The notes beneath the pieces were generated by a model that saw only the letters and a program-made list of their open reading frames with translations, was not told the origin of the DNA and searched no databases. From an uncultured archaeon (GTDB lineage: Archaea; Asgardarchaeota; Thorarchaeia; Thorarchaeales; Thorarchaeaceae), in NCBI GenBank assembly GCA_964354495.1, contig CAYHAA010000004.1, positions 120,001-152,000 of the forward strand: 32,000 nt of DNA, given 5' to 3'. The translations under genes and the position numbers were made by a program. Positions 884 through 28,173 of this stretch are shown piece after piece; the stretch's first letter is position 1; every line of letters begins with the position of its first letter.

Positions 884-1408
884 CTAGAGAAATAGCTGCA
901 TGGTGATGTTGCCTGTTTCTTCGTCTGAGTCAACAACTCTGAATCCAATATGCTCATAGAAAGAACTGAGATGGAATCCAACCTCATTCTCAAACTCAGT
1001 ATCAAGCTGTATAATTCTATAACCCATCTTCTTGGCCCAACGAATGAGCGCTGTCATAATGATTCGTCCAATTCCTCTCCCTCTCTGCTTGACTGCAATC
1101 GTATCTAGATAGAAGATTTCAGTCAATACTCCATGAAGCGTGTAGCCCAATACCTGTCCACTGGGAACTCCATCCACAGTGATGAACATCATGAGGACAT
1201 CTTCTTCTGCCAGCCGCTCCATAATCTCCTCTTCACTGTAGGTAAGGGAGGGCCTGAATGAGCTCTGCTCTATCTCCCGATACCAAGTCAGGTACTGCTC
1301 AGACCAGGTTTCAGGAAAGACAAGCTTGACTGTAGGACCGAGTATAGGTACAAGTTCTCTCCTCATCTGCCGCCAGATTGGATCTCTTCTTGCTCTGTTC
1401 AACATCAT
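884..1408 (-). CDS. GNAT family N-acetyltransferase
   Basis: 174 aa ORF with YLDTIAV followed by the acetyl-CoA motif QRGRGIG, and a C-terminal FYEHIGF. Confidence 0.85.
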   Translation of the reverse strand: MMLNRARRDPIWRQMRRELVPILGPTVKLVFPETWSEQYLTWYREIEQSSFRPSLTYSEEEIMERLAEEDVLMMFITVDGVPSGQVLGYTLHGVLTEIFYLDTIAVKQRGRGIGRIIMTALIRWAKKMGYRIIQLDTEFENEVGFHLSSFYEHIGFRVVDSDEETGNITMQLFL

Positions 1409-1452: not shown

Positions 1453-2457
1453 TTATCCCTTGAGGCCATATCTGCGCATCGCGGACTCTAGCAACCTGCG
1501 TACGAGCTCGTCGTACGAGTATCCAGCCTTCATCGCCATGAGCGGGAAGAACGAGATGTCTTGATTCTCAAGATCAAAGTCCATTCCAGGAAGTGGATTG
1601 ATTTCAAGGAAGAAGATTCTCCCTTTCCTATCCATTCTGTAATCGATTCGGGCAAAGTCAGGTACATCAAGGTTCTTGCAGACGTCGAGCGTGATTGCTT
1701 TGAGTCGGCTCCTTGTCTTTGCATCCAGCTTTGCAGGACAGACATAATGACTCAAATCATCCAGTATTGTCTTGGCTCTCTGCCCTAGAACGCCACCCAC
1801 CTCCGGAGGCATGCTGCTGAAATCAATTTCAACAATGGGCAGAACCTCAGGAGGGCCTTTGGGAGTGCCAAGAATACCCACACTGAACTCGCGTCCTTCA
1901 ATGAACTGCTCAATGAGTATCTCCTGTGCATATTCAATCAACATGGCCTTTAACTTGGCCTTGAGCTGTTTCAGATTGTGTACAATATTGTCCTCATTAA
2001 TTCCGACAGACGATCCCTCTTCGTTGGGCTTCAGAATCACTGGATACTTGAACTCGATAGAATTCGTTTCGTTCAAGCTTGACACAATATGGAACTGAGG
2101 TGTCAGGATGCCATGATACAACAATACTTTCTTTGTCCAGCCCTTGTTCAGGCATACGGCAGTCGTAAGGACGTTTGCTCCCACGTAGGGTATCCCGAGC
2201 ATCTCCAGTACGGCGGGGACATGCGACTCTCTGCTCTCTCCACGCACTCCTTCGGACCTGTTGAGAACGAGGTCAGGACGTTCTCGCTTCAGATTCTCAA
2301 GAATGCCTTCGTTGCCCTCAATGAAGAGATACTCGTGACCTGCATCTTCAATGCCATGTTTAATCATCTCAATAGTATGAGGAGGGTCGTATTCGACCTC
2401 AAACTCAGACTCATCCTTTCTTGTGTTAACTATCAATGCAACGCGCATATCTCGCAC
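1453..2457 (-). CDS. D-Ala-D-Ala ligase-like ATP-grasp ligase (non-canonical subfamily)
   Basis: Motifs LEMLGIPYVG, LNKGWTK, KPNEEGSSVGI, EQFIEGREFSVG, ARIDYR and FLEINPLPG. It lacks the Ddl N-terminal GGxSxE motif. Start is GTG 2457 or ATG 2448. Confidence 0.85.
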   Translation of the reverse strand: MRDMRVALIVNTRKDESEFEVEYDPPHTIEMIKHGIEDAGHEYLFIEGNEGILENLKRERPDLVLNRSEGVRGESRESHVPAVLEMLGIPYVGANVLTTAVCLNKGWTKKVLLYHGILTPQFHIVSSLNETNSIEFKYPVILKPNEEGSSVGINEDNIVHNLKQLKAKLKAMLIEYAQEILIEQFIEGREFSVGILGTPKGPPEVLPIVEIDFSSMPPEVGGVLGQRAKTILDDLSHYVCPAKLDAKTRSRLKAITLDVCKNLDVPDFARIDYRMDRKGRIFFLEINPLPGMDFDLENQDISFFPLMAMKAGYSYDELVRRLLESAMRRYGLKG

Positions 2458-2513: not shown

Positions 2514-3890
2514 CTAGATTTCAAACGAAGAAATCTCTTCGCGAAGGATGGACATCACTTGGTCCTTCAGTTCGGCGGGTATAGTTATTGGATCGTAGAG
2601 AGTGATGAATCTCTTGAACAGCTCATCTTCCCTCTCACAAGCCTCACTGTACAGGGCGGATTTCTTAAAATCATCGACAAGTTTCCCCTTGACGCCCTTC
2701 TTTACAGCGCAATAGAAAGCAAAGATTTGTTCGTCCCTAGCAGTGACCGTATTTGCATACGGAAGAGCAGACTTGCCATCAAACACCGTAAAGTATCGTT
2801 TCTTATCCCGATCAAACATGTTCTCACGGAAGCCGATTGCCTTTGGATCAATACCACTGCCAGCACATAGAAGATACATCTTACTACAAATCGTGCAATC
2901 TTGGCACCAGTGATAGTCAACACCAGCTTCAGTTTCAGTAAAGCAACTCATCTGGTACTTAGCATACTTCGGATATCTATGTACAAGGGTTCTCTGGACC
3001 ATCATATCCATTATAGGCTCGATGAGGCTTCCAGTCTTCACCGTCCGGCCTGAGAATGCCTTTGTGATTTGATCCAAATGGATTGTCCAATTATGGGTTT
3101 GGTCATAGCACGGATAGATGAACCATCCATCCTTTTCGTTCACAAACGTTTCGCCAGTAGTCTGTTCATTCCCAAACAGGATGTACTTGCCCTGCAATGC
3201 ATAGGCAAGAGGGATGAGATCGATGGCATATTCGGTCGATTGGAGCCCCCACCCAAGATCTGAAAAAGGCAGACCAAGGTAGGCGTAGTGCCTAAGCTTT
3301 CCCGTATCATGCCTGAGGACATGAATCGAATCTCCAAACTCCTTCTTGAACTTCTTCGCCAGTTCTCTCTTGTGTTTCTCCTCATAGAGCATGCTGTCTT
3401 CCACGAAGTAGCCCCCCTCAGGATCTAGGCCAATTTCATCTGCAATGGCGTACGCGAGGAGGCTGTCCTTGCCAAAGCTGAGCCCGACAATTGCACGATA
3501 TGCATCTTCAATAGGATCAGGGGATGGCACAGTAATCTCAGGATCTGTGAACACATACCGAGTCCCAAAGAACTTGCGTACCATCTCTGCAGTATCAGTA
3601 CCATCTACCTCGGCACATGATGGAATATCCCTTATGAAATTATCAACGAAGTACGGCTCCAGTAATGGTCGACCAGAGTGGTAGGTGATTTGCGGATCAT
3701 TGAAGATGAGTGGGAGATGCATTGTAGTCGCCAATGCAAGATTATCTTTCAGAGCCTCGCGCGTGTCCTTGGGCACCCTTTCCCAATACCCCGCGGGATA
3801 CGAGACCGGATAGGATTTCTCATTGAAGTGTACAGAGAATCCATTCTTTGTTGTCTTAGATCGTACCTCAAGCATTTCAAGCACCACCAA
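2514..3890 (-). CDS. PP-loop ATPase resembling the MurL peptide L-to-D-Glu epimerase family
   Basis: PP-loop GLSFGKDS, then FGNEQTT, SLIEP, and SCF...WCQDCTICSK. Order and spacing resemble MurL-type GGGKDS / NExSA / SLLRP / SCN...WCGxCxKC as I recall them. Start is TTG 3890 or ATG 3875 (preceded by GGTGGTG). Confidence 0.65.
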   Translation of the reverse strand: MVVLEMLEVRSKTTKNGFSVHFNEKSYPVSYPAGYWERVPKDTREALKDNLALATTMHLPLIFNDPQITYHSGRPLLEPYFVDNFIRDIPSCAEVDGTDTAEMVRKFFGTRYVFTDPEITVPSPDPIEDAYRAIVGLSFGKDSLLAYAIADEIGLDPEGGYFVEDSMLYEEKHKRELAKKFKKEFGDSIHVLRHDTGKLRHYAYLGLPFSDLGWGLQSTEYAIDLIPLAYALQGKYILFGNEQTTGETFVNEKDGWFIYPCYDQTHNWTIHLDQITKAFSGRTVKTGSLIEPIMDMMVQRTLVHRYPKYAKYQMSCFTETEAGVDYHWCQDCTICSKMYLLCAGSGIDPKAIGFRENMFDRDKKRYFTVFDGKSALPYANTVTARDEQIFAFYCAVKKGVKGKLVDDFKKSALYSEACEREDELFKRFITLYDPITIPAELKDQVMSILREEISSFEI

Positions 3891-3987
3891 TCATGCGCGT
3901 GCATTCATGGATAACTCTTATCGTTCAACTTATTATATTTCTCTGAATCGCGCGCACTTTTCGAGGTATTCACAAGTTTCCAATGGG

Positions 3988-4593
3988 TCAATCAGGTTTC
4001 TGGAGCTTCACGAAGAACGTGTGCTTGTCAACCTTCTTCGCAGTGACCTTGAATCCGACCTTCTTCGCAGGTCTAATAATTGCTTCAGTGTTTTGACCTC
4101 GCAAGACTCCACCATAGCCGGTTTCTATTACGGAGTCATTAGGAAGGTGTATCTTCAGGGGAATTACTGCGAGCTTTTTCGATTGCTCTTCTGGAGGTAT
4201 AGTGAAGATTGGCTCCCATACCATGAGTTCGGCTCCAGGCTTTAGGACTCGCCATATCTCAGATAGCACACGCTCGAAGTCTGCTTCGGGAATGTACATG
4301 AATGTGAAGAACGCAGTAGCGTAGGAAAAGGTTTCATCCAGAAATTGTAGTTCACTTGCATCCATAACTATCTTGAGTGAGCTGTTCTTCATCTCTTCGA
4401 GCTCTCGCTTGACACGATCAATGGCAATCACATCACGGCCCTTCAGAAGCCCAATGATACCCTCTCCTCCGCCGCCTATGTCGAGAATCCATTCGCCTCT
4501 GTTATCGAAGTCTTCGACATGAATCTCCTGTTTTGGAATGACATAGAATCTGCTCAGGTCAATATCGCCGGGGTGGTCGTCTTTTTCGTCCAT
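3988..4593 (-). CDS. Class I SAM-dependent methyltransferase
   Basis: Motif I ILDIGGGGEG, IAIDR, MDASELQFLDETF and RVLKPGA. I prefer the ATG at 4593 (MDEKDD) over the ORF-track start at 4635. Confidence 0.85.
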   Translation of the reverse strand: MDEKDDHPGDIDLSRFYVIPKQEIHVEDFDNRGEWILDIGGGGEGIIGLLKGRDVIAIDRVKRELEEMKNSSLKIVMDASELQFLDETFSYATAFFTFMYIPEADFERVLSEIWRVLKPGAELMVWEPIFTIPPEEQSKKLAVIPLKIHLPNDSVIETGYGGVLRGQNTEAIIRPAKKVGFKVTAKKVDKHTFFVKLQKPD

Positions 4594-4640
4594 GTTCCAT
4601 TCGCCGGAGCAGATTGGAATTAAACCCATTGACAAGCACT

Positions 4641-4684: not shown

Positions 4685-5443
4685 CTATGTAAGGATGGCA
4701 CTGATACTGCCAAGATTGGTCACAGCAACTATCGTCAATGTCTGTGCGGCAGTATCGTAGTCGGTTGTTTCGTAATGGTCGGAGCCTGTTTCTGTCCAGC
4801 CGGCAGCAGTGATACTAACACTCCCGAGAGATGTGGTACAATCAATACTGCCACCAATGCCTGATGGGAGATCTGCGATGATTGAGATGCTACCAGTAGT
4901 GGTCTGCAAATCAAAGGTTGGGCTACCCAAGAGCACTGTGTCATCAGCCATTACAGTGTTGATGCTGCCCGTGGTCACTGAAACTGTCATATCTCCAATA
5001 TGGGCGCCAGCACTGAACACAACGTTGACACTACCACTCTGGGTAAGAATGTTGATTGTGTAGTTTACACCACTGCCCAGTGTGATATTGATGCCCATAG
5101 AAGGATACTCAACGCCAATTGTGTTGCCTGCGAAGCTGACAGTTGGAGCACCCTCAGTAGTGAGGGTGGAGTTTTGAATTTCCATTTGGATTTCGTACAG
5201 CAATGACTCGTTGTCGACGAAGACTATGGAAATACTGCCTGCTGCTACGTTGACATCGAGAGCTACAGTTTCATTAGTGGCGCCTACTTCCGCCCCGAAG
5301 GAGAAGTCTGTAGTCGCCGGGTTGAAGTTCCAGTTGAAGTAGCTAGTTCCATAGTAGGCCAAAAAACCTACAGTAACAGCACCAATCACTAGAACTGCAA
5401 GAATACATCCGACCATACTCGGATTTCTTTGATAATTACTCAT
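4685..5443 (-). CDS. Membrane-anchored protein with DUF4097/adhesin-like beta-solenoid repeats
   Basis: N-terminal TM helix (GCILAVLVIGAVTVGFLAYY) and repeated T/SGSI/V units (AGSISI, SGSVNV, TGSINT, TGSISI, LGSVSI, LGSISA). The ATG at 5443 overlaps the stop of the upstream regulator (ATGAGTAA), so the 5587 start in the track is unlikely. Confidence 0.7.
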   Translation of the reverse strand: MSNYQRNPSMVGCILAVLVIGAVTVGFLAYYGTSYFNWNFNPATTDFSFGAEVGATNETVALDVNVAAGSISIVFVDNESLLYEIQMEIQNSTLTTEGAPTVSFAGNTIGVEYPSMGINITLGSGVNYTINILTQSGSVNVVFSAGAHIGDMTVSVTTGSINTVMADDTVLLGSPTFDLQTTTGSISIIADLPSGIGGSIDCTTSLGSVSITAAGWTETGSDHYETTDYDTAAQTLTIVAVTNLGSISAILT

Positions 5444-6068
5444 TTCTAACACCTGTTCTGTGAAACCGCAGAAAACTATGCCATTTATCCCGCAGTTCTC
5501 TGTATTGCGAATCTTCTTCCAAAGCAAAGCGGCGCATGATTCGCGAAGCGTCGCCTCTATCCGAGGATGAAAGCTCATCATGCTCATCCTCGTTCACGAT
5601 AAGGTTACTAGAGCTGATCTCGTTCTCCCTATCGATCAGTGCCGTCAACAAGTCCACAGCCTCGCCAATCTGACGCTCTGGAATGTCTATACCATAGACT
5701 GAGAGGCTTGTTATCATGGACCTCAGGCGCTTTGTTGCATCATCCCCGGTGGCCTGCACCATCTCGCTGATGCCCATGCGATATTCTCGTGCAGAAGCCC
5801 GATAATATCTCTGGACAATGCCAGTCTGTGTCTGCTCGGTTCGTTCCTCAAAGACAAGACCTACTTCTTTCAATTTCTGAATGTGATGCAGTATTGTACC
5901 AGGATTTTTGCGTGTCACGTCTGCGAGCTGTTTCACAGTCATCGCATCTTTGACAAGATAGTCAAAGATTATCTTCGCTCTAGTCGGCTCCATCAGAAGC
6001 TGAATCAGCTTCTTGTCTTCGATGACCTCCATATCCTTGACTCTATGCTTATTCTTGGAGCCCACCAT
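5436..6068 (-). CDS. ArsR/HTH_20-type winged-helix transcription regulator
   Basis: LMEPTRAKII...MTVKQLA...PGTILHHIQKLKEVGLV...RYYRA. Starts 3 nt after the upstream stop. Confidence 0.85.
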   Translation of the reverse strand: MVGSKNKHRVKDMEVIEDKKLIQLLMEPTRAKIIFDYLVKDAMTVKQLADVTRKNPGTILHHIQKLKEVGLVFEERTEQTQTGIVQRYYRASAREYRMGISEMVQATGDDATKRLRSMITSLSVYGIDIPERQIGEAVDLLTALIDRENEISSSNLIVNEDEHDELSSSDRGDASRIMRRFALEEDSQYRELRDKWHSFLRFHRTGVRNE

Positions 6069-10597: not shown

Positions 10598-11683
10598 ATG
10601 CTGCACACGAAACTCTGTGACATAGTCGGAATCAAGCACCCCATCATGCAGGGTGGGATGGGTCCATACAAGACAGAATCACTGGCAATTGCTGTTGCCA
10701 ATGTAGGTGCGTTGGGGATCATTAGCAGTATAGGGATGGCAGCAACAATGCTCCCAGACGCAGCACCAATAGACGCAATACGTCTCTTTGGAACTGACCC
10801 ACCAGCTGTGATACTGCAGAAGTCGATTGATGCTGTCACGAAGGGGACACGGGCCTCAGGTGGTGTTTTTGGGGTGAACATTCCTGTCGCCTCAGAGTTC
10901 ATGCTTGCATCAGAGATGTTCGTCAAGCAGACGATAGAGTCATGCAAGTCAGACTCTGACACAGAGCGCTCACTGCGGGTCATCGTGACCTCGGCCGGAA
11001 ATCCAAAGCCATGGTCTATACTCAAGCAGGAGGGCTTCATCTGGGTACATGTTGTGCCCTCTGTCTATCACGCAAAGAAAGCAGAACAGGCAGGAGCTGA
11101 TATCATCGTTGCCTCAGGCCATGAGGGTGGAGCTCATGTCTCATGGGAACCAGTACATTCCATGGTCTTGGTTCCTGCGGTCAGTAAAGCAGTGAAGACA
11201 CCTGTCGTCGGAGCAGGCGGATTCTGTGATGGTGCCTCTCTTGCTGCGGCACTTTGTCTTGGCGCAGTGGGTATCCAGATGGGTACTCGCCTGATAGCCA
11301 CTAAGGAGAGTGACTTTGAGCCAATGTGGAAGGAGGCAATCATTGAGAGAGAAGAACGTCGGACGCTTGTTGGAAGAGGTCTCTTCGGTCCAATGCGGTT
11401 CCTTCGCAATGCCAGGGCAGAGGCTATCGTTAGACGCACGCTGAGTGATATCCCGACGTTCTATCTAGGCGAACCTCTTGATTCCAATGAGGAAATCCTG
11501 AAGCTAGAGCGCTCAGGGTTCGACGACCTGATTGACGCAAAATCGGACACAGCCCTCATGTTTGGAGGAGAGGTCACGGGACGTATCAACGATATACCCA
11601 CAACTAAGGAGCTCATAGAGAGGATAATCAAAGAGGCTTCTGAAACACTGGAAACTGTCCCGAAGAGTGTCCTTCGACGATAA
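10598..11683 (+). CDS. Nitronate monooxygenase / FabK-like FMN oxidoreductase
   Basis: GIKHPIMQGGMG, GALGII, GHEGGAH, PVVGAGGFCDG and GAVGIQMGTRLIATKES. Confidence 0.88.
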   Translation: MLHTKLCDIVGIKHPIMQGGMGPYKTESLAIAVANVGALGIISSIGMAATMLPDAAPIDAIRLFGTDPPAVILQKSIDAVTKGTRASGGVFGVNIPVASEFMLASEMFVKQTIESCKSDSDTERSLRVIVTSAGNPKPWSILKQEGFIWVHVVPSVYHAKKAEQAGADIIVASGHEGGAHVSWEPVHSMVLVPAVSKAVKTPVVGAGGFCDGASLAAALCLGAVGIQMGTRLIATKESDFEPMWKEAIIEREERRTLVGRGLFGPMRFLRNARAEAIVRRTLSDIPTFYLGEPLDSNEEILKLERSGFDDLIDAKSDTALMFGGEVTGRINDIPTTKELIERIIKEASETLETVPKSVLRR

Positions 11684-11689
11684 ATGACG

Positions 11690-11729
11690 CCGGGCAGAGC
11701 AAATAAGAGGGGGGACTACTACTGCCCGG
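11690..11729. other. Intergenic 8-bp inverted repeat (possible stabiliser or attenuator hairpin)
   Basis: CCGGGCAG (11690-11697) / CTGCCCGG (11722-11729) with a 24-nt purine-rich loop. Confidence 0.45.
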
Positions 11730-11772
11730 ACCATATTGATTGTGTTATCTTGTGTTCGGAGGCGAATTAGAA

Positions 11773-12948
11773 TTGGTATGGTGGTTTTCTGTACCGAAGA
11801 TTGTATTCGGTGATGATGCGCTTAGCGAACTTGAACTCATTCAAGGAAAGAAAGCAATTATCATCACTGACAGGGTTGTTAATGGGCTAGGCCTTGCTGA
11901 GAAGGTCTCGGATATTCTCGGTGAGAAGCAATGGTCGACTGCAATCTGGGATGGTGTAGTGCCAGATCCAAAGGTTTCGACTGTTAAGGAAGCTGCTGAA
12001 GCAATGAAGCAATTTGGTCCAGACTGGATCATAGCCATTGGAGGAGGCAGCGCGATGGATACAGCAAAGGCAGCTTGGGCACTCTACGAGAAACCCGGTG
12101 TTCAACTCGAGGCGCTGACTCCCTTTGATATACTCGGTCTGAGAGCCAAGGCAAGGCTTGTCTGTATTCCAACTACTGCAGGAACAGGATCCGAAGCAAC
12201 GAAGGCAATAGTGATTCGAGATGATGAAACCGGTCGCAAATTTGCCACGATAAATCCTGAATTCGTCCCGGACATTGCAATCCTCGATCCTTCCTTTGTC
12301 GTTGGTCTTCCCAAGGAACTGACAGCGTACACAGGATTGGATGCATTGGTTCATGCAACCGAAGGTTACATCTCGGTGTGGAAGAACGACTTCTCTGACG
12401 GATGCTCGTTGCAGGCCGTGAAAATGGTCTTCAAATGGCTGCCAATATCGGTCGCAGATCTCACGAATCTGGAGGCTCGAGAGAAGATGCTCGTTGCAGC
12501 GTGCCTTGCAGGTATGTCTTTCGGCAACTCACAGGTAGCTCTTGCTCATTCGCTTGGTCACAGTATGGGATCTGTCTTGAGATTGCATCATGGGCTCTCC
12601 GTAGGAATGGCGCTTCCGTACACGATTGAGTTCAATTGCACTGATAATAATCAGTGCGCATCACAGTATGCCGAGCTGGCAAGAATGATAGGCATCACAC
12701 TCAAAGATGGTGTGAAGGCATCAATGAAGTATGCGGAGGCCATTCGAGACCTCATGGGTGAGGTTGGTTGTCCTAGAAGTTTCAGTGAGGCAGGCGTCAA
12801 GAAGAAGGACTTCAAGGCCGGGCTCGAGAAGCTTGTCGAGTTTGCAATGATGGACTCTAGCCTCACGATGAATCCACGCAATACTGACAGCAATGAAATT
12901 CGGAAGATCTATGAATACATGTATGACGGGAAGGTCATAGATTTCTGA
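11773..12948 (+). CDS. Iron-containing alcohol dehydrogenase
   Basis: GGGSAMDTAK and PTTAGTGSE. Metal ligands in DALVHATE, LAHSLGH and LHHG. I prefer the TTG at 11773 after GGAGG over the track start at 11740. Confidence 0.92.
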   Translation: MVWWFSVPKIVFGDDALSELELIQGKKAIIITDRVVNGLGLAEKVSDILGEKQWSTAIWDGVVPDPKVSTVKEAAEAMKQFGPDWIIAIGGGSAMDTAKAAWALYEKPGVQLEALTPFDILGLRAKARLVCIPTTAGTGSEATKAIVIRDDETGRKFATINPEFVPDIAILDPSFVVGLPKELTAYTGLDALVHATEGYISVWKNDFSDGCSLQAVKMVFKWLPISVADLTNLEAREKMLVAACLAGMSFGNSQVALAHSLGHSMGSVLRLHHGLSVGMALPYTIEFNCTDNNQCASQYAELARMIGITLKDGVKASMKYAEAIRDLMGEVGCPRSFSEAGVKKKDFKAGLEKLVEFAMMDSSLTMNPRNTDSNEIRKIYEYMYDGKVIDF

Positions 12949-12962
12949 GGGAGGCAGAAAGA

Positions 12963-14783
12963 TTGGTCGGCTATAGAGGAAGAATACTCCATGCGAATCT
13001 GACTAATGGTGCTACAACGGTCAAATCGCTCAACAAGAGACTCATGAGACAGTTCATAGGAGGCGCGGGACTCGGTACCCGTCTTCTATACGATATGATT
13101 GACTCCAACACTGACCCACTGGGACCTGAGAATCCCCTAATCTTCATGACAGGCCCCTTTACGGGCACAGCTGTCCCGACAAGTGGGAAGTCGACCTTTT
13201 GCGCAAGGTCTCCGAAGACGGGGCTTCTCGGATACAGCACAGTTGGCGGGCATTTTGGAGCGGACCTGAAATTCGCAGGATATGATGGTATTGTCATCAC
13301 AGGTTCTTCCAAGGAGCCATGTTACCTGCTAGTTGAAGACTCTGATGTTGAGATACGCGATGCGCGGCATCTCTGGGGGAAGGACACAGAACAGGTATGG
13401 AATGAACTTAAGGAAGAAACCGGCCACAGAGTGGCAGGCATAGCAAGAATTGGTATCGCTGGAGAGAACCTCGTCAAGTATGCAAGTATCATAGTCGACC
13501 ATCACCGGGCAGCTGGCAGGACAGGGTTAGGTGCAGTGATGGGTTCAAAGAAGCTCAAGGCTATCGTGATCCATGGGTCTGATAGGAAAATACCAGTTGC
13601 AGATGATGAGGAGCTCCGCAAGTATGCGACAGAGATGAACACGGATAGCAAGGAAGATCCAACGTTCCGAATGTACTCAGACCTTGGGACAGCCGGATAT
13701 ACAGACATGGCAAGTCTCATGTATGGCTCCTTTCCAGCAGGTTACTACACCGTTGCTGGTTTTGATACCTACAACCTCAGTGGCACCAGCGTCAAGGAAA
13801 CTATCCTCGTTGGCAAGACTGCATGCTTCCGATGCCCTATAGGCTGCGGGCGAGTTGTGGAGATACCAGAGGGCAAGTACAAGATGGAGAAGTTCTCGGG
13901 GCCTGAGCTAGAGGTCACCGGGACCATGGGTTCTCTTCTATTGAACAACAATGCAGAGGCTGTGGCATATGCAAATATGATGCTTGACCTATACGGTATT
14001 GATACGATTTCCGGAGGGAACACCATTGCCTTTGCTTACTATCTTTTCAAAGAGGGGAAGATTACAGCCAAGGATCTGGATGGCATCAGTCCGGAGTGGG
14101 GAGAGGTTGACTCTGCTCTCGCACTCATGGCTAAGATTGCGAAGAGAGAGGGTATCGGCGATGTGATGGCAGAAGGAAGTCTTCAGTTCGGAGAGAGATT
14201 CGGTGTAGCAGAACTGGCAGCACAGGTCAACGGACTTGAACTACCACAGCACGACCCAAGAGGTTTCTCTGGCCTGGCTGCAGGATATGCCACTTCGCCA
14301 CGGGGTGCATGCCATATGGCTGCTGATATGTACAATGTCCAAATGGGACAGCCCAACGAGGCTTTCGGAATTGAAAGTGTGGACAGATTCGCGAACGAGG
14401 CAGATCTTGTGGCAAAGCATCAGGACTTTAGGTGCATGACGAACTCGGCTGTGATATGCAACTTCTATCCACTTGATGGAGCCAAGTTGACTAAGCTTCT
14501 GCATCTGGTCACTGGATGGGACATCTCTACAGAGGAGGTTGTGATGACGGGTGAGAGGATATTCACGATGATGAGGCTTCTCAACCTTAAGCTTGGATAT
14601 AGTCCCAAGAATGAAATCCTTCCGAAGATGATCTCGAAACCACTTGAGGGAGCCACAGAGGGACACGTTCCTGACATTGATGAGCATCTCGACAAATGGT
14701 ATGAAACACGGGGCTGGAGTAGAAAGACTGGAAGACCCTCAAAGAAAAGGCTGAAGGTACTTGGTCTTGAGACCATGACATAG
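12963..14783 (+). CDS. aor: Tungsten-dependent aldehyde:ferredoxin oxidoreductase family protein
   Basis: GGAGLG, AGRTGLGAVMGSKKLKA, Fe-S motif CFRCPIGC, HDPR and RGACH. 606 aa, TTG start after GGAGG. Confidence 0.92.
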   Translation: MVGYRGRILHANLTNGATTVKSLNKRLMRQFIGGAGLGTRLLYDMIDSNTDPLGPENPLIFMTGPFTGTAVPTSGKSTFCARSPKTGLLGYSTVGGHFGADLKFAGYDGIVITGSSKEPCYLLVEDSDVEIRDARHLWGKDTEQVWNELKEETGHRVAGIARIGIAGENLVKYASIIVDHHRAAGRTGLGAVMGSKKLKAIVIHGSDRKIPVADDEELRKYATEMNTDSKEDPTFRMYSDLGTAGYTDMASLMYGSFPAGYYTVAGFDTYNLSGTSVKETILVGKTACFRCPIGCGRVVEIPEGKYKMEKFSGPELEVTGTMGSLLLNNNAEAVAYANMMLDLYGIDTISGGNTIAFAYYLFKEGKITAKDLDGISPEWGEVDSALALMAKIAKREGIGDVMAEGSLQFGERFGVAELAAQVNGLELPQHDPRGFSGLAAGYATSPRGACHMAADMYNVQMGQPNEAFGIESVDRFANEADLVAKHQDFRCMTNSAVICNFYPLDGAKLTKLLHLVTGWDISTEEVVMTGERIFTMMRLLNLKLGYSPKNEILPKMISKPLEGATEGHVPDIDEHLDKWYETRGWSRKTGRPSKKRLKVLGLETMT

Positions 14784-14790
14784 GCTTGGC

Positions 14791-16305
14791 TCAGACTTGA
14801 GCATTCGGTAGATCTTCGGCGATACTCCTGAGCAAGTCATAGAGTATGGCGATGTCAGATATCTTGACGCGTTCATCGGGGGTATGCGAATTCTGTGCTG
14901 TTGGCCCAATGGACACCATCTGAAGACCAGGTATCTTCGCACCAATGATGCCACATTCGAGACCAGCATGGATTGCTTCAATCTTCACTTTGGTCTTGGC
15001 CGCAACCTCGTAACGCTCACGGATGAATTTGAGAAACGAGCTATTGGGCTCAGGATTCCATCCAGGGTACATAGGCTTCTGAGTCACATCCCAACCAGAC
15101 AAGGAGCCAATATCAGAGAGCTGAGCTCTCACGACTTCTAGCTCTGCATCAACACTGCTTCTCGTACTGAGAAGAACTTCAATCGATGCGCCCTCTGTCT
15201 TGATAATGGCCATATTGTTCGAGGTCTCTACGAGGCCTTCAACATGAGGCGAGAACTGGATTGGCCCATGAGGAATGACGTTAATCGATGTGATGATCTT
15301 TTTCGATTCATCTAGGGAGAATGCGGGCACAGGGCTGGCCTTACTCCATTTGATAGAAATATCTGGCTCAAGAGGTCTTAATCCCTTTGCAGCAATCTTG
15401 TAATATGATAGAATCTCAGATCTGACCTGTTCGAGTATCTGTTCAGCGCGAACTGCTTTGCCTGGCTCCACTGCAAACTTCACTCTCGATTCTCGTGCGA
15501 TGGCATTGTGCTTGCTTCCACCATTCCATTCACAGAGGTGAACATTCAACTCCTTGACGAGGCCGGTCATCATTCTTGCAGCAATCTTGTTGGCATTCGC
15601 ACGATGTTCATGGATGTCCACACCTGAGTGTCCACCAAGAAGCCCCGTAATCTCAAGTTGATAGAAGGCAGCTTTTCCAGTGACCTTGTTCACTCTCAGG
15701 TTCTTTGTAAGTGTAGTATCTCCGCCGCCTGCAGAGCCAATAGTGATTACGCCCAGTTTCTCAGAGTCAACGTTGATCAGGAGATTGCTCTTGATCCCCA
15801 GAGCCTTGGGCTCAAGTGCAAAAGCGCCCACCAGACCAGTCTCCTCATCGACAGTAATGAGTAGTTCTAGGCGCCCTGACTTCACCTTTGGATCCAGTAG
15901 CAGTGCTAATCCCAACGCGACACCAATTCCATTGTCAGCACCGAGAGTAGTACCATCTGCATCAACCCATTCTCCGTTATCTTGAATACGCACTGGAATA
16001 GGATTGGTATTGAAGTCGAAGCCGCCCTTACGATTGGTCTCACAGACCATGTCCATATGCCCCTGGAGAAGAAGTGCTGGTGCAGACTCTAGTCCTCTTG
16101 ATGGAGCCCGTTTCATGAAAAGATTGCCAGCAGCGTCCTCAGAGATAGTCAGTTGGATGCCCAAGGATTTGGCACGCTCAGAAATCCAAGACTTCAGTTT
16201 GGCTCGTATTCTCTCTTCTTTCTTAGACTCACGGGGAGTCGCAATGAAGACCTTTTCAAAGATTTCCCATACTGGTTTGGGTTCTAGACTCTCAAGGACC
16301 ATCAA
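14791..16305 (-). CDS. pepD: Aminoacyl-histidine dipeptidase (peptidase M20C)
   Basis: QGHMDMVCE, LGADNG, EETGL, GGHSGVDIH, IHAGLECG and HTPDE. Confidence 0.9.
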   Translation of the reverse strand: MMVLESLEPKPVWEIFEKVFIATPRESKKEERIRAKLKSWISERAKSLGIQLTISEDAAGNLFMKRAPSRGLESAPALLLQGHMDMVCETNRKGGFDFNTNPIPVRIQDNGEWVDADGTTLGADNGIGVALGLALLLDPKVKSGRLELLITVDEETGLVGAFALEPKALGIKSNLLINVDSEKLGVITIGSAGGGDTTLTKNLRVNKVTGKAAFYQLEITGLLGGHSGVDIHEHRANANKIAARMMTGLVKELNVHLCEWNGGSKHNAIARESRVKFAVEPGKAVRAEQILEQVRSEILSYYKIAAKGLRPLEPDISIKWSKASPVPAFSLDESKKIITSINVIPHGPIQFSPHVEGLVETSNNMAIIKTEGASIEVLLSTRSSVDAELEVVRAQLSDIGSLSGWDVTQKPMYPGWNPEPNSSFLKFIRERYEVAAKTKVKIEAIHAGLECGIIGAKIPGLQMVSIGPTAQNSHTPDERVKISDIAILYDLLRSIAEDLPNAQV

Positions 16306-16421
16306 TCAGACCTCGGTTCTCCAGAGGCAGAGTCCCCGACTTTAAGGTTTCCTCAGGGAACAGACATCCTTTTCTCCTACGAAACTTCAATATGGCACCT
16401 GATTGCAAGGAGATTGATACC

Positions 16422-17294
16422 ATGGTCTTTGACCCGGGACTTACTGATGTTTTCCAAGATATCTTGCCAGGTTTTGGTGGATTCTTTAGTATCATCACAG
16501 AACTCGGTAGCGAACTTGTCTTCATCGGGTTGATGCTTGTCTTGTATTGGGCTGTGAACAAGAAAGAAGCTATCTTGGCAACCTACATCCTAGTGGTGGC
16601 AATACTCTCGAATTACTGGCTGAAGTATTTCATCGCCAATGAGAGACCACCCCCGAGTAACTGGTATTCCGGACAAGAACCGACGAACTACAGCACACCC
16701 AGTGGACACGCTCAGTCGTCAATAACACTCTATGGATGGTTCGCGACAAGAGTCAGAAAGTGGTGGGTGACTCTTATCGCAATCGTGCTCACACTTCTTG
16801 TCGGTATCTCTAGAGTGTACCTTGGCGTTCACTTCCTTGGGGACATCCTGCTAGGATGGGGAGTAGGAATAGTAACCATACTAGCGTTCGTCTATCTCGA
16901 GAAACCAGCACGGCGGTTCCTCTCACGATACAGACAAGACTACCTCTTGTTGGGACTGGTCGCCATAGGATTTGTGATGACCCTGATTGCCTCACTTCTC
17001 CCCGAACCACCAAATGACAATTTCGGTGCATTGGGAGGTCTGACGATGGGACTAGCTCTCGGACTTGTTCTAGAGAATAGATTCGTCAACTTCTCCGCTG
17101 AGCCACATGACGGGAAGAAATGGAGACTCGTGCTTCGGGTCATCATTGGTCTAGTACTCGTCGTGGGAGTGATGGTGGTACTGGGGCTAATTCCCGGAAC
17201 TGACGCGATCTGGCCGCGTGCCATAAGATACATGCTGATAGCACTCACAGGAATCTTTGTATGGCCAGCCATCTTCAAGAGAGTCAATCTGTAA
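16422..17294 (+). CDS. PAP2-family integral membrane phosphatase
   Basis: KYFIANERP (Kx6RP), PSGH and SRVYLGVHFLGD, with multiple TM helices. Start is ATG 16422 or 16392. Confidence 0.9.
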   Translation: MVFDPGLTDVFQDILPGFGGFFSIITELGSELVFIGLMLVLYWAVNKKEAILATYILVVAILSNYWLKYFIANERPPPSNWYSGQEPTNYSTPSGHAQSSITLYGWFATRVRKWWVTLIAIVLTLLVGISRVYLGVHFLGDILLGWGVGIVTILAFVYLEKPARRFLSRYRQDYLLLGLVAIGFVMTLIASLLPEPPNDNFGALGGLTMGLALGLVLENRFVNFSAEPHDGKKWRLVLRVIIGLVLVVGVMVVLGLIPGTDAIWPRAIRYMLIALTGIFVWPAIFKRVNL

Positions 17295-17378
17295 AGTAGG
17301 TCAACCTATCCTACGATGACCAAAACACTGCCATCTAGGGCTCGACACATTCAAGAGGCGGGTTGTTTTACCGGACTT

Positions 17379-18110
17379 ATGGTGAAGCGCGTGAAAGAGG
17401 AAACTAGTACACCACTATTGTCGCCACTATATCCAGGACCGCCGTATCACTATGTAGATGCAAAGCTCTTCCTAGCATTATTCAACCCGACAGAAGAGTC
17501 GGTGCGGGCTCTACTCCCCGAGCCTCTTAGGCCATCACAGATGCCGCTTGCGGGACTTCTCTTCGCGGAACAACCGTGCAAAGAGGCGGGTACATTCATG
17601 GAGTCAGGCATGCTTGTCCAATGCATGTTCGATAATCCCAAGACAAAGGAGGAGGAGGTCGGTGTCTACTTCTGCTACAACTATGTCGACACAGACGTTG
17701 CTCAGGCTGCAGGCAGGGAGATCTGGGGATATCCACGCAAACGCGCGAAGATATCGCTGGACTGGAAGAAGGACACTCTAGTTGCCACGACACGAAGGGA
17801 TGGTGTGACAATTCTCAAGGCGAAATGCACACTGAACGATGATGGAGAGTGGATTGACAGCGGTCCAAATATCAACATCAAGATCATTCCTAGTGTAACA
17901 GGCAAAGGACATGATCTAGCGGTAGTCACCGCCGCATATCTCAAGTACGACATAAAGAAAGGGCGTTCTGGTGAGGTAGCAGTCGAGTTCAAGAACGGAC
18001 CTCATGATGATTTCTCAAAGGTCGTCATTGAGAGCAATATGATTGGACTCTACTTTGACTGTGATATACTGGTCCCTGAAGGGATTATCGTTGGCAAAGT
18101 CAAGGTCTAA
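17379..18110 (+). CDS. Acetoacetate decarboxylase-like (ADC superfamily) protein
   Basis: LLPEPL, ESGMLV, and GREIWGYPRKRA (family motif GRExWGxPKK). Start is probably ATG 17379; the track gives 17316. Confidence 0.8.
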   Translation: MVKRVKEETSTPLLSPLYPGPPYHYVDAKLFLALFNPTEESVRALLPEPLRPSQMPLAGLLFAEQPCKEAGTFMESGMLVQCMFDNPKTKEEEVGVYFCYNYVDTDVAQAAGREIWGYPRKRAKISLDWKKDTLVATTRRDGVTILKAKCTLNDDGEWIDSGPNINIKIIPSVTGKGHDLAVVTAAYLKYDIKKGRSGEVAVEFKNGPHDDFSKVVIESNMIGLYFDCDILVPEGIIVGKVKV

Positions 18111-19829
18111 CTAGAGATAATCTGATGCCTCGATGGTCTGAAGTTTGCGACCGGATTTTCCTATGTAGGAACGCATGATCTGAATGCAAATCAGGGCGAA
18201 CAGGGGCATTACAAGATAGCTGAATATTGGACTCAAGAGGATACCAAGTCCTAAGATGGCACCAACGCCCACAAATCCGATCATATTAGGCAGAAGATGA
18301 GCTCGAGCCATCGCCCACGTACCTCTGATGGGCATCTGTACGGCTGCACCTCGTTGCCTAGTTATATTTCTCTGGGCCTTGAAGTCACCGCCGGTAGCGG
18401 CAGAGTAGGATGCAATGCCTCCTGATGCCAATGTGAGAAAGATGCTAGAGATGATGACTGCAGGGATATAGATCCAGAGTGAGGGTTGAACAAAGAGGAC
18501 AAGGACAGAAGCAATCCCTGTGGCAATCGCTGTGAATGGAACAGCGCTGAAGACCTTGCCTTTGACATAGTCAGTAAGACTCGCCGGGGCGAGCTGCAGA
18601 TTCATCAAGTTCTTTCCCTCATAGACCAACTCATAGCCTGCAAAATACACGCCATAGGAGACTGCGAACGGAATCATGGCAGAGATGATGATGAACGGAG
18701 CAAATCCTGCCAGATTTCCGCCAGGTGCCAAGAAGATCAAAAAGAACCAGAGAACTGTTCGCATCGGGCCCACAAGATAGTTCGCCAAGACCCGTCCCTC
18801 ACGTCTGACGGAGGTCGTGTTGTACCACATTGAAACACTGGTGGTCGTACTCATCTTCAATAGTGGGAGATCTGATGGGTTCCAGACAGTGTGAGTGATC
18901 TTTACCTCAGTCTTGGATGACCTCTTGGAGCCACTTGCAAGCCAACCACTATAATGTGCTGTTTCACTCACGATAGCGTTTGCATAGATCAGCATTATTG
19001 ATATCAGCATGAAGAGAACAGCAAGCAGAATATCGACCAGATTGATGGGTAGATTCACAATTGGTCTGATAGTGACTGCATTCATTGCGCCGCCGGGGCT
19101 GAAGTCAGAAGACAACCCTATCTGCTGGGCGAACTGAAGAATCACTGCAAAGAAGCCCTCTAGACCAGAGTCAGATGCGAAAAGAGAGTAATAGTAGAGT
19201 GTACCGATCATGATCGACACCGAAGTTCCCAAGAACCACCCAATCTGCTTGAGCCTCCGCCGACCTGCAAGGAATCGTGATATGGTCAATCCAATGAGGC
19301 CACCAAGAGCGACGCCCAGAGTGATATTTACAATAAGCATCACGAGAAACACGGGAATGGATAGCAGTGCGAGTGGAGCTGTTGATGATACTGCTAGTCC
19401 AATGACTATGGGTGTTCCGATGACCAAATAGATCAGGGCATTGTAGAAAATCACGACTATTGTCTTCTCTAGAAACAGGGTCCTGAGGGACACGGGCATG
19501 CACATGAGATACTCCATTTTCGAGGAATTCGCCACAGTCGAAACACTGACTGCGATTGAACCCATGAAGGAAACGATTACGATGAAATTGAACAGTGTCG
19601 CTCCAAAGTCAATACCATTGATGATTGCAGACCGGAAGAAACTCCACCCAAGAACCTTTACCATGGAAACAATACCCCAAAAAGCGACTACTGCAAAAGT
19701 GATTGCAGCCACATAACGTAAGGAACTCCTGAACAGACTACGTTTCTTTGATCTCAATCCCTTTACATTTCTGACCCGTAGAATGCTACCAAGGTCGTGC
19801 CTGATGAGAATCAGGAGGTCTTCGAGCAA
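18111..19829 (-). CDS. Putative ABC exporter permease (ABC-2-like, about 12 or more TM)
   Basis: Highly hydrophobic 572 aa with YLMCMPVS...LFLEK and an internal second repeat (LQLAPAS...KGK). The TTG start directly follows the ATPase stop. Confidence 0.78.
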   Translation of the reverse strand: MLEDLLILIRHDLGSILRVRNVKGLRSKKRSLFRSSLRYVAAITFAVVAFWGIVSMVKVLGWSFFRSAIINGIDFGATLFNFIVIVSFMGSIAVSVSTVANSSKMEYLMCMPVSLRTLFLEKTIVVIFYNALIYLVIGTPIVIGLAVSSTAPLALLSIPVFLVMLIVNITLGVALGGLIGLTISRFLAGRRRLKQIGWFLGTSVSIMIGTLYYYSLFASDSGLEGFFAVILQFAQQIGLSSDFSPGGAMNAVTIRPIVNLPINLVDILLAVLFMLISIMLIYANAIVSETAHYSGWLASGSKRSSKTEVKITHTVWNPSDLPLLKMSTTTSVSMWYNTTSVRREGRVLANYLVGPMRTVLWFFLIFLAPGGNLAGFAPFIIISAMIPFAVSYGVYFAGYELVYEGKNLMNLQLAPASLTDYVKGKVFSAVPFTAIATGIASVLVLFVQPSLWIYIPAVIISSIFLTLASGGIASYSAATGGDFKAQRNITRQRGAAVQMPIRGTWAMARAHLLPNMIGFVGVGAILGLGILLSPIFSYLVMPLFALICIQIMRSYIGKSGRKLQTIEASDYL

Positions 19830-19831
19830 GA

Positions 19832-20590
19832 CTACTCACCCAAGAACTCTGCAATCTTCTGCATGTCAGGTCCGCCCGTAAGGTCGAGAAAGATGGCCTC
19901 AAGAGACTGCTGGCCTTTTGCCTTCGTTCGGAGCTCGTCCATTGTGCCCTCAGCAATCATTTTTCCGTGATCGATGATCCCAATACGGCCACACATGCGT
20001 TCGGCTATCTCAAGAATATGAGTACTCATGAGTATGGTGTTTCCTCTATCCCTCAGACCAACAAGAATCTCTTTAATTGTCGCGGCACCACGAGGGTCAA
20101 TCCCTGCCTGGACTTCATCAAGAATCAGAATCTTCGGACTGTGAATCAACGCAGCCACCAAGCTGATTTTTCTGGACATTCCCTTGGAATAGGTCTCAAT
20201 CAGGTCATCACTGGCGTCTTTGATGTCTAGGAGTGTCAGGAGATCATCAATCTCCTTGTCCCGCTCAGAGCCTCGAGCGACTCTCCAAATATCGCTGACG
20301 TAGTTGATATACTCCCATCCTGTCAATCGCTCGGGCAAAACCGGTTCTTCAGGGACGTAGCCCATGGACCGCTTTGCCTCCACTGTGTGTTGTTGAACAT
20401 CAAATCCATTAATGCGCGCGGTCCCTGCGGTAGGCTTGAGAAGGCCGAGTAGCATCTTCATGGTGGTGGATTTGCCCGATCCATTTGGCCCGAGCAGTCC
20501 GTAAATCTCACCCGGGCTCACCTGAAATGAGAGGCCATCGACAGCGACAAATTCGCTGAACTGTTTTGTCAATGCAACTGCTTCTATCAT
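19832..20590 (-). CDS. ABC transporter ATP-binding protein
   Basis: Walker A GPNGSGKST, signature YSKGM, Walker B ILILDE and H-loop STH. ATG 20590 (MIEAVAL) is preferred. Confidence 0.93.
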   Translation of the reverse strand: MIEAVALTKQFSEFVAVDGLSFQVSPGEIYGLLGPNGSGKSTTMKMLLGLLKPTAGTARINGFDVQQHTVEAKRSMGYVPEEPVLPERLTGWEYINYVSDIWRVARGSERDKEIDDLLTLLDIKDASDDLIETYSKGMSRKISLVAALIHSPKILILDEVQAGIDPRGAATIKEILVGLRDRGNTILMSTHILEIAERMCGRIGIIDHGKMIAEGTMDELRTKAKGQQSLEAIFLDLTGGPDMQKIAEFLGE

Positions 20591-20659
20591 CAGTATCTGT
20601 TGTTGGGGTTTCTCAAAGTGATTTATGCCTTGGCATTGAACTGGTGTTTGTTGTTCGGA

Positions 20660-20671
20660 AATCATTATAAG
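20660..20671 (+). promoter_or_regulatory. TATA box of a leaderless lplA promoter
   Basis: TTATAA at 20665-20670, preceded by the purine-rich CGGAAA and lying about 25 nt upstream of ATG 20695. Confidence 0.6.
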
Positions 20672-20694
20672 AACCAGAAGACGGGTTTCAAATC

Positions 20695-21792
20695 ATGCCG
20701 CTCGAAAGCTGGAGACTTCTGGATATTGGCGCAATCGATCCGCTACAGACACAGATCATCTACGATATGGTTGCTCAAGGAATCACAGAGGGAGAGTCTG
20801 AGAACACCCTGATAATCTGTTGGCCGGCCAAACCATTGGTAAGTCTGGGCTATTTTCAGGAGATAGAGCTGGACATCGATACCAAGTTCTGCAGAGAGAA
20901 TAACATTGTGTTCACTCGACGGGTCATCGGCGGAGGCGGGGTCTATCTTGATGATGGTCAGATGTTCTATCAGCTGATTGGTAGAATTGACAGTCCAACA
21001 ACCCCTAAGAGGATTGACGACTACTATCGAAAGTTCTTGTTGGCTCCAGTTCAGGCATACAGGAATCTAGGAATTGAGGCAGAGTTCAAACCCGTGAATG
21101 ATCTCATTGCAAACGGAAAGAAGATATCAGGAAATGGCGCAGGAGATGTTGGCGATGCCCGAATCCTCACAGGTAACCTGATCTTGGATTTTAATTTCGA
21201 TATGATGGTGAAGGTCCTGAGAGTTCCGGATGAGAAGTTCAGAGACAAGGTTGCAAAGAGTCTCCGTGAGCGGATGACGACGATTCTCTTGGAAACCGGG
21301 TCAATGCCAGACCGGAAAGAGGTCAAAGAGGACCTTATCAGGCTCTATGAGGAAACCCTCGATATTGAACTCAATCGTGGCAAACTCACAAGATGGGAGA
21401 GAGGGAGAATGGCACAGCTGCGACCGAAATATCTCTCAGATGAATGGCTCCATTGGAGGCAAGGACAGCGGCTCACTGATGCAAAGACTGTGAGAATATC
21501 TGCAACGACAAGCGTGGGAACAGCCAACCACAAGGCTCCAGGAGGTCTCATCAGAGCCACTATAGAGAGAGTCGATGACAAGGTGAATGCGATTACTGTC
21601 AGTGGTGACTTCTTCATGTTACCAAATGAGGCTATCTCGCAACTTGAAAAGAAAGTCATTGGCACGTCTATTGAAGGCGATGCAATCATCAATCGCATCA
21701 AATCGGCCTATAGTGAATACAACATCGAGTCTCCGGGAGTGACACCTGAAGACATTGAAACAGCTATACGGTTGGCGATTGAAAAGGACTAG
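20695..21792 (+). CDS. lplA: Lipoate-protein ligase A with C-terminal domain
   Basis: LVSLGYFQ, RRVIGGGGVYLD, NDLIANGKKISGNG, and a C-terminal KAPGGLI...SGDFF domain. Confidence 0.88.
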   Translation: MPLESWRLLDIGAIDPLQTQIIYDMVAQGITEGESENTLIICWPAKPLVSLGYFQEIELDIDTKFCRENNIVFTRRVIGGGGVYLDDGQMFYQLIGRIDSPTTPKRIDDYYRKFLLAPVQAYRNLGIEAEFKPVNDLIANGKKISGNGAGDVGDARILTGNLILDFNFDMMVKVLRVPDEKFRDKVAKSLRERMTTILLETGSMPDRKEVKEDLIRLYEETLDIELNRGKLTRWERGRMAQLRPKYLSDEWLHWRQGQRLTDAKTVRISATTSVGTANHKAPGGLIRATIERVDDKVNAITVSGDFFMLPNEAISQLEKKVIGTSIEGDAIINRIKSAYSEYNIESPGVTPEDIETAIRLAIEKD

Positions 21793-21836
21793 TAGTATTG
21801 GATAAGTTCATGTCATCGGGAGTCTGAACCACAAGT

Positions 21837-22808: not shown

Positions 22809-22819
22809 GGCGATTATTG

Positions 22820-23902: not shown

Positions 23903-23903
23903 T

Positions 23904-25475: not shown

Positions 25476-25542
25476 CGAGGACCGCTCGGAGCGAGCATGT
25501 AGAAAAGCATTTGGGAGAGTGTTCCTTGTACCAATAAATGGG

Positions 25543-26436: not shown

Positions 26437-26439
26437 CTA

Positions 26440-28047: not shown

Positions 28048-28126
28048 CAGTTCCCGGCTCTAGTTGTCCGATGTTTCCACGATGCAATGCACATTGATAA
28101 AACAAGCTCTCTGGCGAACCACACCC

Positions 28127-28173
28127 GCACAGGAGATGGTGACCATGACACACATCCTTCTGTGTTCCTGTGC
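28127..28173. other. Branched hairpin in the fhs/RLP divergent intergenic region
   Basis: Outer stem GCACAGGA (28127-28134) / TCCTGTGC (28166-28173), inner stem ACACA-TCCTTC-TGTGT (28150-28165), and palindrome ATGGT-G-ACCAT (28136-28146). Confidence 0.5.

Follow-up and report, generated by a model that had tools for sequence, protein, structure and literature searches.

A stretch of 32,000 nucleotides from an uncultured Thorarchaeaceae archaeon, called the window below, encodes on its minus strand (2514-3875) a 453-residue protein related to MurL, the ATP-dependent peptide epimerase. Its gene belongs to a four-gene accessory module, together with the genes of a Ddl-like ATP-grasp ligase, a GNAT N-acetyltransferase and a ThrC-like pyridoxal-phosphate (PLP) enzyme, and the four travel together between Asgard archaea, Bathyarchaeia and a small number of bacteria. 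Within the MurL superfamily, the protein and its relatives form a subfamily that is distinct and well defined and that has new partners and a new host range. By analogy with the MurD2/MurL pair, we propose that the MurL-like enzyme would adenylate the ligase product at its C-terminal carboxylate and invert the terminal residue; we put the probability of this reading at roughly 0.5.

The window is part of contig 4 of a 3.3-Mb genome, 97.7% complete. Its MurL-like gene lies in a minus-strand open frame of 458 codons (2514-3890) that stays open up to a TTG at position 3890. Translation probably begins with the ATG at 3875: this is the first ATG of the frame, a Shine-Dalgarno-like GGTGGTG run stands 6 nt upstream of it, a TATA-like box, AAATATAATA, can be read directly in the sequence about 55 nt upstream, and the MurL-like homologues begin at the equivalent methionine. 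For these reasons we take 2514-3875 as the gene; its product is described here as a PP-loop/Zn enzyme from the open reading frame, its translation, an AlphaFold2 model and hhalign comparisons. The intergenic region 3876-3987 (minus strand), where inspection of the sequence finds both the TATA-like box and the GGTGGTG run, is the probable promoter of a transcription unit in which the MurL-like gene comes first, followed by the Ddl-like and GNAT genes. A promoter and terminator scan gave a signal no better than that of shuffled sequence.

Three motifs had been singled out by an earlier sequence-only reading, and all three are present at the sites claimed. The PP-loop ATP-pyrophosphatase motif SFGKDS occupies residues 133-138 (3462-3479, minus strand) and aligns with GGGKDS of genuine MurL. 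The (G)NE motif, residues 235-237, follows the fourth core strand (3165-3173, with N236-E237 at 3165-3170, minus strand). The four-cysteine cluster SCF...WCQDCTIC, SCFTETEAGVDYHWCQDCTIC, contributes C311, C324, C327 and C330 (about 2886-2948, minus strand); it aligns with the cysteine cluster of QueC in hhalign and falls inside the part of the model, residues 125-343, that superposes on QueC, where the four cysteines presumably form a structural zinc site as they do in that enzyme.

We followed these residues in two profiles, a narrow one (A1) of 29 family members with 57-78% identity and a broad one (A2) of 98 diverse representatives reaching down to 22% identity. In A1, S133, G135, K136, D137, S138, N236, E237 and the four cysteines C311, C324, C327 and C330 are all invariant. 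Across A2, G135, C311, C324 and C327 are still invariant, and conservation is 90% or higher at K136, S138, E237 and C330. Conservation of this kind argues that the motif residues are not chance occurrences.

For comparison with MurL itself we used the NCBIfam model NF041275 (MurL_Xanthmoales, curated cut-off 700 bits), with which control sequences were fetched from genomes of the class that holds one of the family's metagenome-assembled genomes (MAGs), labelled Gammaproteobacteria. Two genuine MurL proteins obtained in this way score 821 and 810 bits, and the gene of each is directly followed by a Mur-ligase gene (MurD2). Both carry GGGKDS, SNE and SSCN...WCGxCPKC in that order, so that the order of PP-loop, NE and four-cysteine motifs given for MurL in the sequence-only reading was right; SNE is present in all five MurL-type sequences.

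When the 98 diverse family members are scanned singly, 76 match NF041275, with a best E-value of 3e-12. In hhalign, A2 aligns with MurL at 99.0% probability (E 3.5e-18) over 344 columns, covering residues 69-442 from the N-domain to the C-terminus, and the narrower A1 does so at 93.6% (E 2e-7). The same A2 profile reaches only 28.6% (E 6e-4) against four Asgard QueC sequences: judged by profile, MurL is much the nearer relative of the two. Twenty columns, from G12 to P433, are conserved both in the family and in MurL, among them GKDS, NE, SC, WC and two further cysteines. From the hhalign values and these shared columns we conclude that the homology to MurL, as judged from sequence, is real and full-length, but remote. 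Full-length profile similarity and the motif series being both present, the window protein is assigned to the MurL superfamily, though not as an orthologue of MurL.

Database annotation points the same way. The nearest ESM Atlas clusters are named 'UDP-N-acetyl-alpha-D-muramoyl-L-alanyl-L-glutamate epimerase', and the Pfam 38.1 domains MurL_epimerase_C (PF26298) and MurL_N (PF26299) are found on 20-80% of the members of these nearest clusters. Some relatives are already labelled 'MurL family protein' in databases; ten distant cluster representatives are all named 'hypothetical'. The homology suggested from the bare sequence is thus upheld by the NF041275 matches, the hhalign result and the names of the ESM Atlas neighbours.

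Several searches returned nothing. The window protein alone has no Pfam match at E ≤ 1 in a Pfam copy that predates the MurL models, and neither a sequence search nor a profile search of the PDB gave a match. NF041275 matches nothing in the whole genome at E ≤ 10. With A1, no MurL turned up in 400 genomes of one class; A1 alone is too narrow to reach it, since NF041275 did find MurL in the same genomes. A database search with the broad alignment gave only close relatives among its best 120 matches. In a tree built by a quick search with midpoint rooting only, the 5 MurL-type and 86 family sequences fall on opposite sides of a very long branch.

The AlphaFold2 model, computed with the family alignment, has a predicted local distance difference test score of 90.5 and a predicted template modelling score of 0.91. 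Its best full-length structural match is QatC of the QatABCD anti-phage defence system (PDB 9y01/9y02), with a VIA-align Z of 15.3 over 313 residues (model residues 1-402) and a structural-alignment identity of 8-10%. QueC follows (PF06508; PDB 3bl5, 2pg3), with Z 14.7, 195/199 residues and a root-mean-square deviation of 2.9 Å over model residues 125-343, then Cap9 of the type IV CBASS (cyclic oligonucleotide-based anti-phage signalling system) (PDB 9nto), with Z 13.5 over 174 residues (model residues 126-338). Generic PP-loop ATPases come next, at Z 9-11, and Foldseek gives the QueC fold match a probability of 1.00. QatC, QueC and Cap9 are all carboxylate-adenylating PP-loop enzymes.

The model suggests an N-terminal domain (residues ~1-120) placed as in QatC, a QueC-like core (~125-343) and a C-terminal helical domain. 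The core would be an ATP pyrophosphatase of the QueC type, with a PP-loop and a Cys4 zinc site, and MurL-type domains would stand on its N- and C-terminal sides. The core superposes almost wholly on QueC, with which it shares the position of the PP-loop, the C-x(n)-CxxCxxC zinc motif and a carboxylate-adenylating type of chemistry; the MurL-like protein is, however, twice as long, with its additional domains on both sides, and has no Pfam QueC match at E ≤ 1. In QatC, as here, a QueC core is enlarged by an N-terminal region. The sequence-only reading had named a best structural match to QueC or another non-MurL PP-loop family as grounds for giving up the MurL assignment, and formally the best matches are of just that kind. 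This outcome is uninformative, because MurL is absent from the structure library (there is no MurL structure in the PDB) and evidently shares the fold.

The genomic surroundings of the gene were compared by clustering open reading frames across 80 related loci, kept out of 150 confirmed matches. The genomes surveyed in this work were samples, and some MAGs may carry a mistaken label. Four families recur: the MurL-like protein in 77 loci, the Ddl-like ligase in 59, the ThrC-like PLP enzyme in 48 and the GNAT in 47, while every other neighbour family occurs in at most 18.

The gene of the Ddl-family ATP-grasp ligase (1453-2457, minus strand; 334 residues) begins 56 nt downstream of the MurL-like gene, and the two are adjacent in 59-64 of the 80 loci. 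The ligase is recognized by Pfam Dala_Dala_lig_C (1.9e-36) and by Ddl structures in the PDB (E 4e-28), and its best NCBIfam Ddl model gives 185 bits, below the cut-off of 243; we regard it as a member of the family and not as an assured Ddl orthologue. It is the sole Ddl-like gene in the genome. The statement of the sequence-only reading that no other mur gene lies in the window is accurate for murA-G; it overlooked that the very next gene downstream is of the D-Ala-D-Ala ligase family.

At 44 nt downstream of the ligase stands the gene of the GNAT N-acetyltransferase (884-1408, minus strand; 174 residues; Pfam Acetyltransf_1, 4e-9), found in 47-50 of the 80 loci and always directly after the ligase. 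Convergent on it across a 30-nt gap is the gene of a short ThrC-like PLP enzyme (Pfam PALP), whose 3' part occupies positions 1-853 of the plus strand; the full-length gene, of 338 codons, starts 164 nt before the window (G000:C4:119837). The enzyme scores 357 bits with NF004996 'threonine synthase' (PRK06381), above its cut-off of 266, and only 81 bits with TIGR00260 thrC, for which the genome holds better matches elsewhere (169 and 157 bits). On account of this low score and of the two better thrC matches it would be a dedicated paralogue, and the genes of the module in general look like module-specific paralogues.

The arrangement with a convergent ThrC-like gene is that of the window. In Spirochaetes, Borrarchaeum and a Rickettsiales MAG, the ThrC-like gene is directly upstream of the MurL-like gene on the same strand, and all four genes form one tight operon in the order ThrC-like/MurL-like/Ddl-like/GNAT. 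The module clade comprises 50 sequences in the tree, with 99% support.

Distant members of the family, in DPANN, in the Candidate Phyla Radiation (CPR) and in MAGs labelled Gammaproteobacteria, are frequently found as paralogues in pairs, arranged in tandem or tail to tail, and frequently have a Ddl-like gene with them. They adjoin diaminopimelate epimerase, a DUF1611 protein or a radical S-adenosylmethionine (SAM) enzyme resembling lysine-2,3-aminomutase: these neighbours belong to amino-acid and stereochemistry metabolism. The loci noted for these distant members are L054, L057, L059, L060, L061, L066, L071, L074, L076, L078 and L080. Partnership with a ligase is seen repeatedly in the superfamily: MurL has MurD2, and the DPANN, CPR and gammaproteobacterial members have a Ddl-like enzyme.

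The comparison with MurL can now be drawn. Besides the collinear full-length homology, the xGKDS/NE/SC...WCxxCxxC series and a length of ~450 residues, both genes stand directly beside that of an ATP-dependent amino-acid ligase. For MurL the partner is a Mur ligase, MurD2, whereas for the MurL-like gene it is a Ddl-type ATP-grasp enzyme, and the GNAT and the ThrC-like PLP enzyme are conserved partners in addition. Finally, the host of MurL has a peptidoglycan pathway and the host of the window does not.

That the window comes from an apparently archaeal genome, as had been surmised from the letters, is correct: its closest relatives are Thorarchaeota, with 90% identity to MAG OWC2. The 80 loci place members of the family in Thor-, Hermod-, Hod-, Heimdall- and Borrarchaeota, in Bathyarchaeia and in the DPANN groups Iainarchaeota, Woesearchaeota and Nanoarchaeota. 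The bacterial MAGs that carry it are those of Spirochaetes, Gottesmanbacteria and Microgenomates, one each of Rickettsiales and Chitinispirillaceae, and some labelled Gammaproteobacteria. Protein searches also return one Odinarchaeota and one Aigarchaeota protein. One locus labelled 'uncultured Actinomycetota bacterium' (L032, CAVQRL010000018.1) holds the full module on a 729-kb contig at 61% identity; its position in the tree is within Bathyarchaeia/Bathyarchaeota, beside L029 of the same sample series, and its Actinomycetota label is probably wrong.

The MurL-like gene is an accessory gene: it is present in 15 of 121 sampled Asgard genomes, including the genome of the window and 2 of 6 others of its genus. 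A close orthologue of the module ligase (39-85% identity) occurs in exactly these 15 genomes and is always adjacent; the other Asgard genomes have at most a different Ddl-like protein, with 29-34% identity to it. This different Ddl-like domain, carried by many of the genomes that lack the module, sits mostly inside an open frame of 560-710 residues, apparently as a fusion (for example G433:C33:30626-31561, G415:C1:857450-858388 and G447:C1:449357-450298). In one genome of the same genus, the ligase orthologue (G511:C8:9433-10428; 85% identity) is interrupted by a single in-frame TGA, which may be a sequencing error or mark a decaying copy.

No Mur_ligase_M domain, MurB or MurG is found in the genome, and its only match of the MraY family scores 59.9 bits against a cut-off of 192. 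On these grounds we reject an involvement of the protein in peptidoglycan or pseudomurein synthesis. The earlier suggestion of a carboxylate-terminated substrate outside peptidoglycan fits well with such a genome and with the tie of the gene to a Ddl-like ligase.

To our knowledge, MurL is the only characterized ATP-dependent peptide epimerase. Its reaction depends on ATP and Mg, releases AMP and runs unidirectionally from L to D (PMC5808125, PMC8788868). The homology, the fold, the motifs, the gene linkage and the lack of a Mur pathway are shown by the results above; what we infer for the module, namely the order of its steps, an epimerizing outcome and what the product is and does, runs as follows. 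The ThrC-like enzyme would supply or tailor an amino acid, and the ATP-grasp ligase would join L-substrates through a peptide bond into a dipeptide-like product whose C-terminal α-carboxylate is free. The MurL-like enzyme would then adenylate that carboxylate (ATP to AMP and PPi) and thereby acidify the Cα proton, possibly by way of an oxazolone; the terminal residue would pass from L to D and the adenylate be hydrolysed. Last, the GNAT would N-acetylate the amine left free. The pathway would end in a small dipeptide with a D-residue, probably N-acetylated, and not in a precursor of peptidoglycan.

That the module builds some small modified dipeptide is probable. More tentatively, and with less confidence than in the epimerization itself, we suggest that the pairing of a ligase with a MurL-like enzyme may be a general strategy for L-to-D conversion after ligation, beyond the peptidoglycan of Xanthomonas, and that the module may make an N-acetylated D-amino-acid dipeptide. 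If so, Asgard archaea, Bathyarchaeia, DPANN, CPR and some Spirochaetes would use it for free small peptides with D-residues, and in archaea lacking such a cell wall the undescribed dipeptide might serve as osmolyte, signal or antimetabolite.

A number of observations weigh against an epimerase. Taken alone, the window protein has no NCBIfam match, NF041275 included, and BLASTP aligns it to MurL with an E-value of 0.003 and 21% identity only. The MurL branch of the tree is ~3.3 + 3.5 substitutions per site away from the module clade. The closest solved structures, QatC, QueC and Cap9, form an amide or a nitrile and do not epimerize, and we know of no catalytic base for the epimerization in MurL. 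The genome also encodes one Ala_racemase_N-family and two Asp/Glu-racemase-family proteins; free D-amino acids could therefore reach the Ddl-type ligase without any epimerization after ligation.

Those structures lend their weight to the main rival, C-terminal amidation or nitrile formation, which we consider unlikely. Here the C-terminal carboxylate of an (N-acetyl) dipeptide, itself the work of the GNAT and the ligase, would be adenylated and attacked by ammonia. The result would be a dipeptide amide, a compatible solute like N-acetylglutaminylglutamine amide (NAGGN); with a second ATP spent it would be a nitrile, such as QueC makes from 7-carboxy-7-deazaguanine. In its set of enzymes the module resembles the NAGGN pathway, which likewise combines a GNAT, an ATP-grasp ligase and a further enzyme altering the C-terminal carboxylate: there, acetylation and ligation fall to Ngg and amidation of the C-terminus to AsnO, all from one cluster (PMC8070244). 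A peptide C-terminal nitrile synthetase provides another precedent, an asparagine-synthetase-like enzyme that turns a peptide's C-terminal carboxylate into a nitrile (PMC13060819), and the patchy, accessory distribution of the gene (15/121 Asgard genomes) would suit an osmolyte or a secondary metabolite. Yet the sequence is far closer to MurL than to QueC, with neither a glutaminase domain nor a glutaminase neighbour, and the resemblance to AsnO-Ngg is one of analogy and not of homology. AsnO, an amidotransferase of the asparagine-synthetase type, has a glutaminase domain and comes from a different PP-loop branch, and the analogy is one of architecture only; the GNAT and ATP-grasp parts of Ngg are fused, and NAGGN clusters have no ThrC-like enzyme. 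Quite unlikely, in our view, is another fate of the adenylate, by cyclization (a lactam or an oxazolone-derived ring), esterification or thiol or amine transfer, which would make the protein a ligase or cyclase instead of an epimerase. Only the adenylating core, with its PP-loop, NE motif and zinc site, is conserved with MurL, the large sequence distance leaves room for a changed second half-reaction, and the paralogue pairs of DPANN and CPR suggest functional diversification; against this, no conserved gene that could supply an acceptor is seen beyond those of the ligase, the GNAT and the ThrC-like enzyme, and the superfamily offers no precedent.

The full-length match to QatC raises the question of whether the protein activates a small carboxylate and attaches it to the N-terminus of a partner protein, since protein N-termini are the targets of QatC and Cap9 (PMC13279940). 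We hold this to be very unlikely: the defence-system neighbours are absent from the MurL-like loci, with no QatA, QatB, QatD, CD-NTase or TGT-like gene, and the conserved partners are instead small-molecule amino-acid enzymes. The NCBIfam QatC model is touched by just one of 98 family members, at E 0.009, and the structural identity to QatC is as low as noted above. Less probable still is a non-orthologous replacement of QueC in preQ0/archaeosine synthesis. A search of the genome with PF06508 gave no match, yet the genome has a tRNA-guanine transglycosylase (TGT)-family gene (arcTGT; 288 bits, in a 679-residue frame) and a pair of FolE2 and PTPS/QueD-like genes, and the MurL-like protein has a QueC-like fold. 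The phyletic pattern is nevertheless independent of QueC. Within the same Thorarchaeota family, QueC is absent from 20 of 22 genomes and the MurL-like gene from 16 of 22; most of the 22 have neither, which is no complementarity, and two genomes of another family (G488 and G519) have both a full-length QueC and the MurL-like gene. The latter is moreover locked to amino-acid enzymes and not to queD or queE, and we rejected the replacement on the phyletic pattern and the queD neighbourhood. Hardly conceivable, lastly, is a true MurL in a peptidoglycan- or pseudomurein-like wall pathway of the archaeon: although the neighbouring gene is of the D-Ala-D-Ala ligase family, the mur genes searched for are lacking, MraY stays below its cut-off and NF041275 does not match.

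The coordinates given for the TGT-family gene and the FolE2-PTPS pair are G000:C1:201031-202014 and G000:C9:48184-48534 (L095:5271-6561). In Thorarchaeota genomes without QueC, preQ0 may come from salvage or from an unrecognized synthase.

A literature search returned nothing on archaeal or non-peptidoglycan homologues of MurL, nor anything usable on DgcN/DUF1611, and MurL is not mentioned in a 2026 survey of the QueC family. What is described here is a large sister group of MurL that is very well conserved (57-78% identity among the sampled Asgard, Bathyarchaeia and related archaeal members), tied to a Ddl-type ligase, a GNAT and a ThrC-like enzyme in organisms without the murein pathway. It offers a concrete four-gene system that can be expressed, both for finding the natural product and for studying the chemistry. 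The model in addition suggests a structural frame for the action of MurL: a core like that of QueC, bearing a Cys4 zinc site and extended at the N-terminus as in QatC. If the product has a D-amino acid, the module would be a new source of D-residues in archaea and point to a new class of small peptides in Asgard/Bathyarchaeia sediments; an amidating enzyme, on the other hand, would open a new way to dipeptide amides. Either outcome would assign a new reaction and pathway to a family now annotated as 'hypothetical protein'.

On the other side of the MurL-like gene, three genes on the minus strand precede it: a class-I SAM methyltransferase (3988-4635), a LiaF-like membrane protein (4685-5587) and, overlapping the latter, an ArsR-type helix-turn-helix protein (5436-6068). 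They were considered as parts of the module and rejected, the methyltransferase being conserved in only 7 of the 80 loci and the ArsR/LiaF-like pair in 14-16, nearly all of them from Thorarchaeota. They are lineage-specific neighbours that stand outside the module.

The rest of the window, from 10598 to 29540, holds ordinary metabolism: a nitronate-monooxygenase-like enzyme, an iron-containing alcohol dehydrogenase, an aldehyde:ferredoxin oxidoreductase, an M20 peptidase and a PAP2 protein, as well as a lipoate-protein ligase, a formiminotransferase-cyclodeaminase, a formate-tetrahydrofolate ligase and a gene like that of the RuBisCO large chain (28170-29540). Outside the window, ~3.4 kb upstream of the ThrC-like gene, there is an open frame of ~1480 residues on the plus strand (L082:1-4443, G000:C4:112001-116443), itself open at the 5' end of the locus; it is followed by the genes of a YhhN-family membrane protein and a tetratricopeptide repeat protein.

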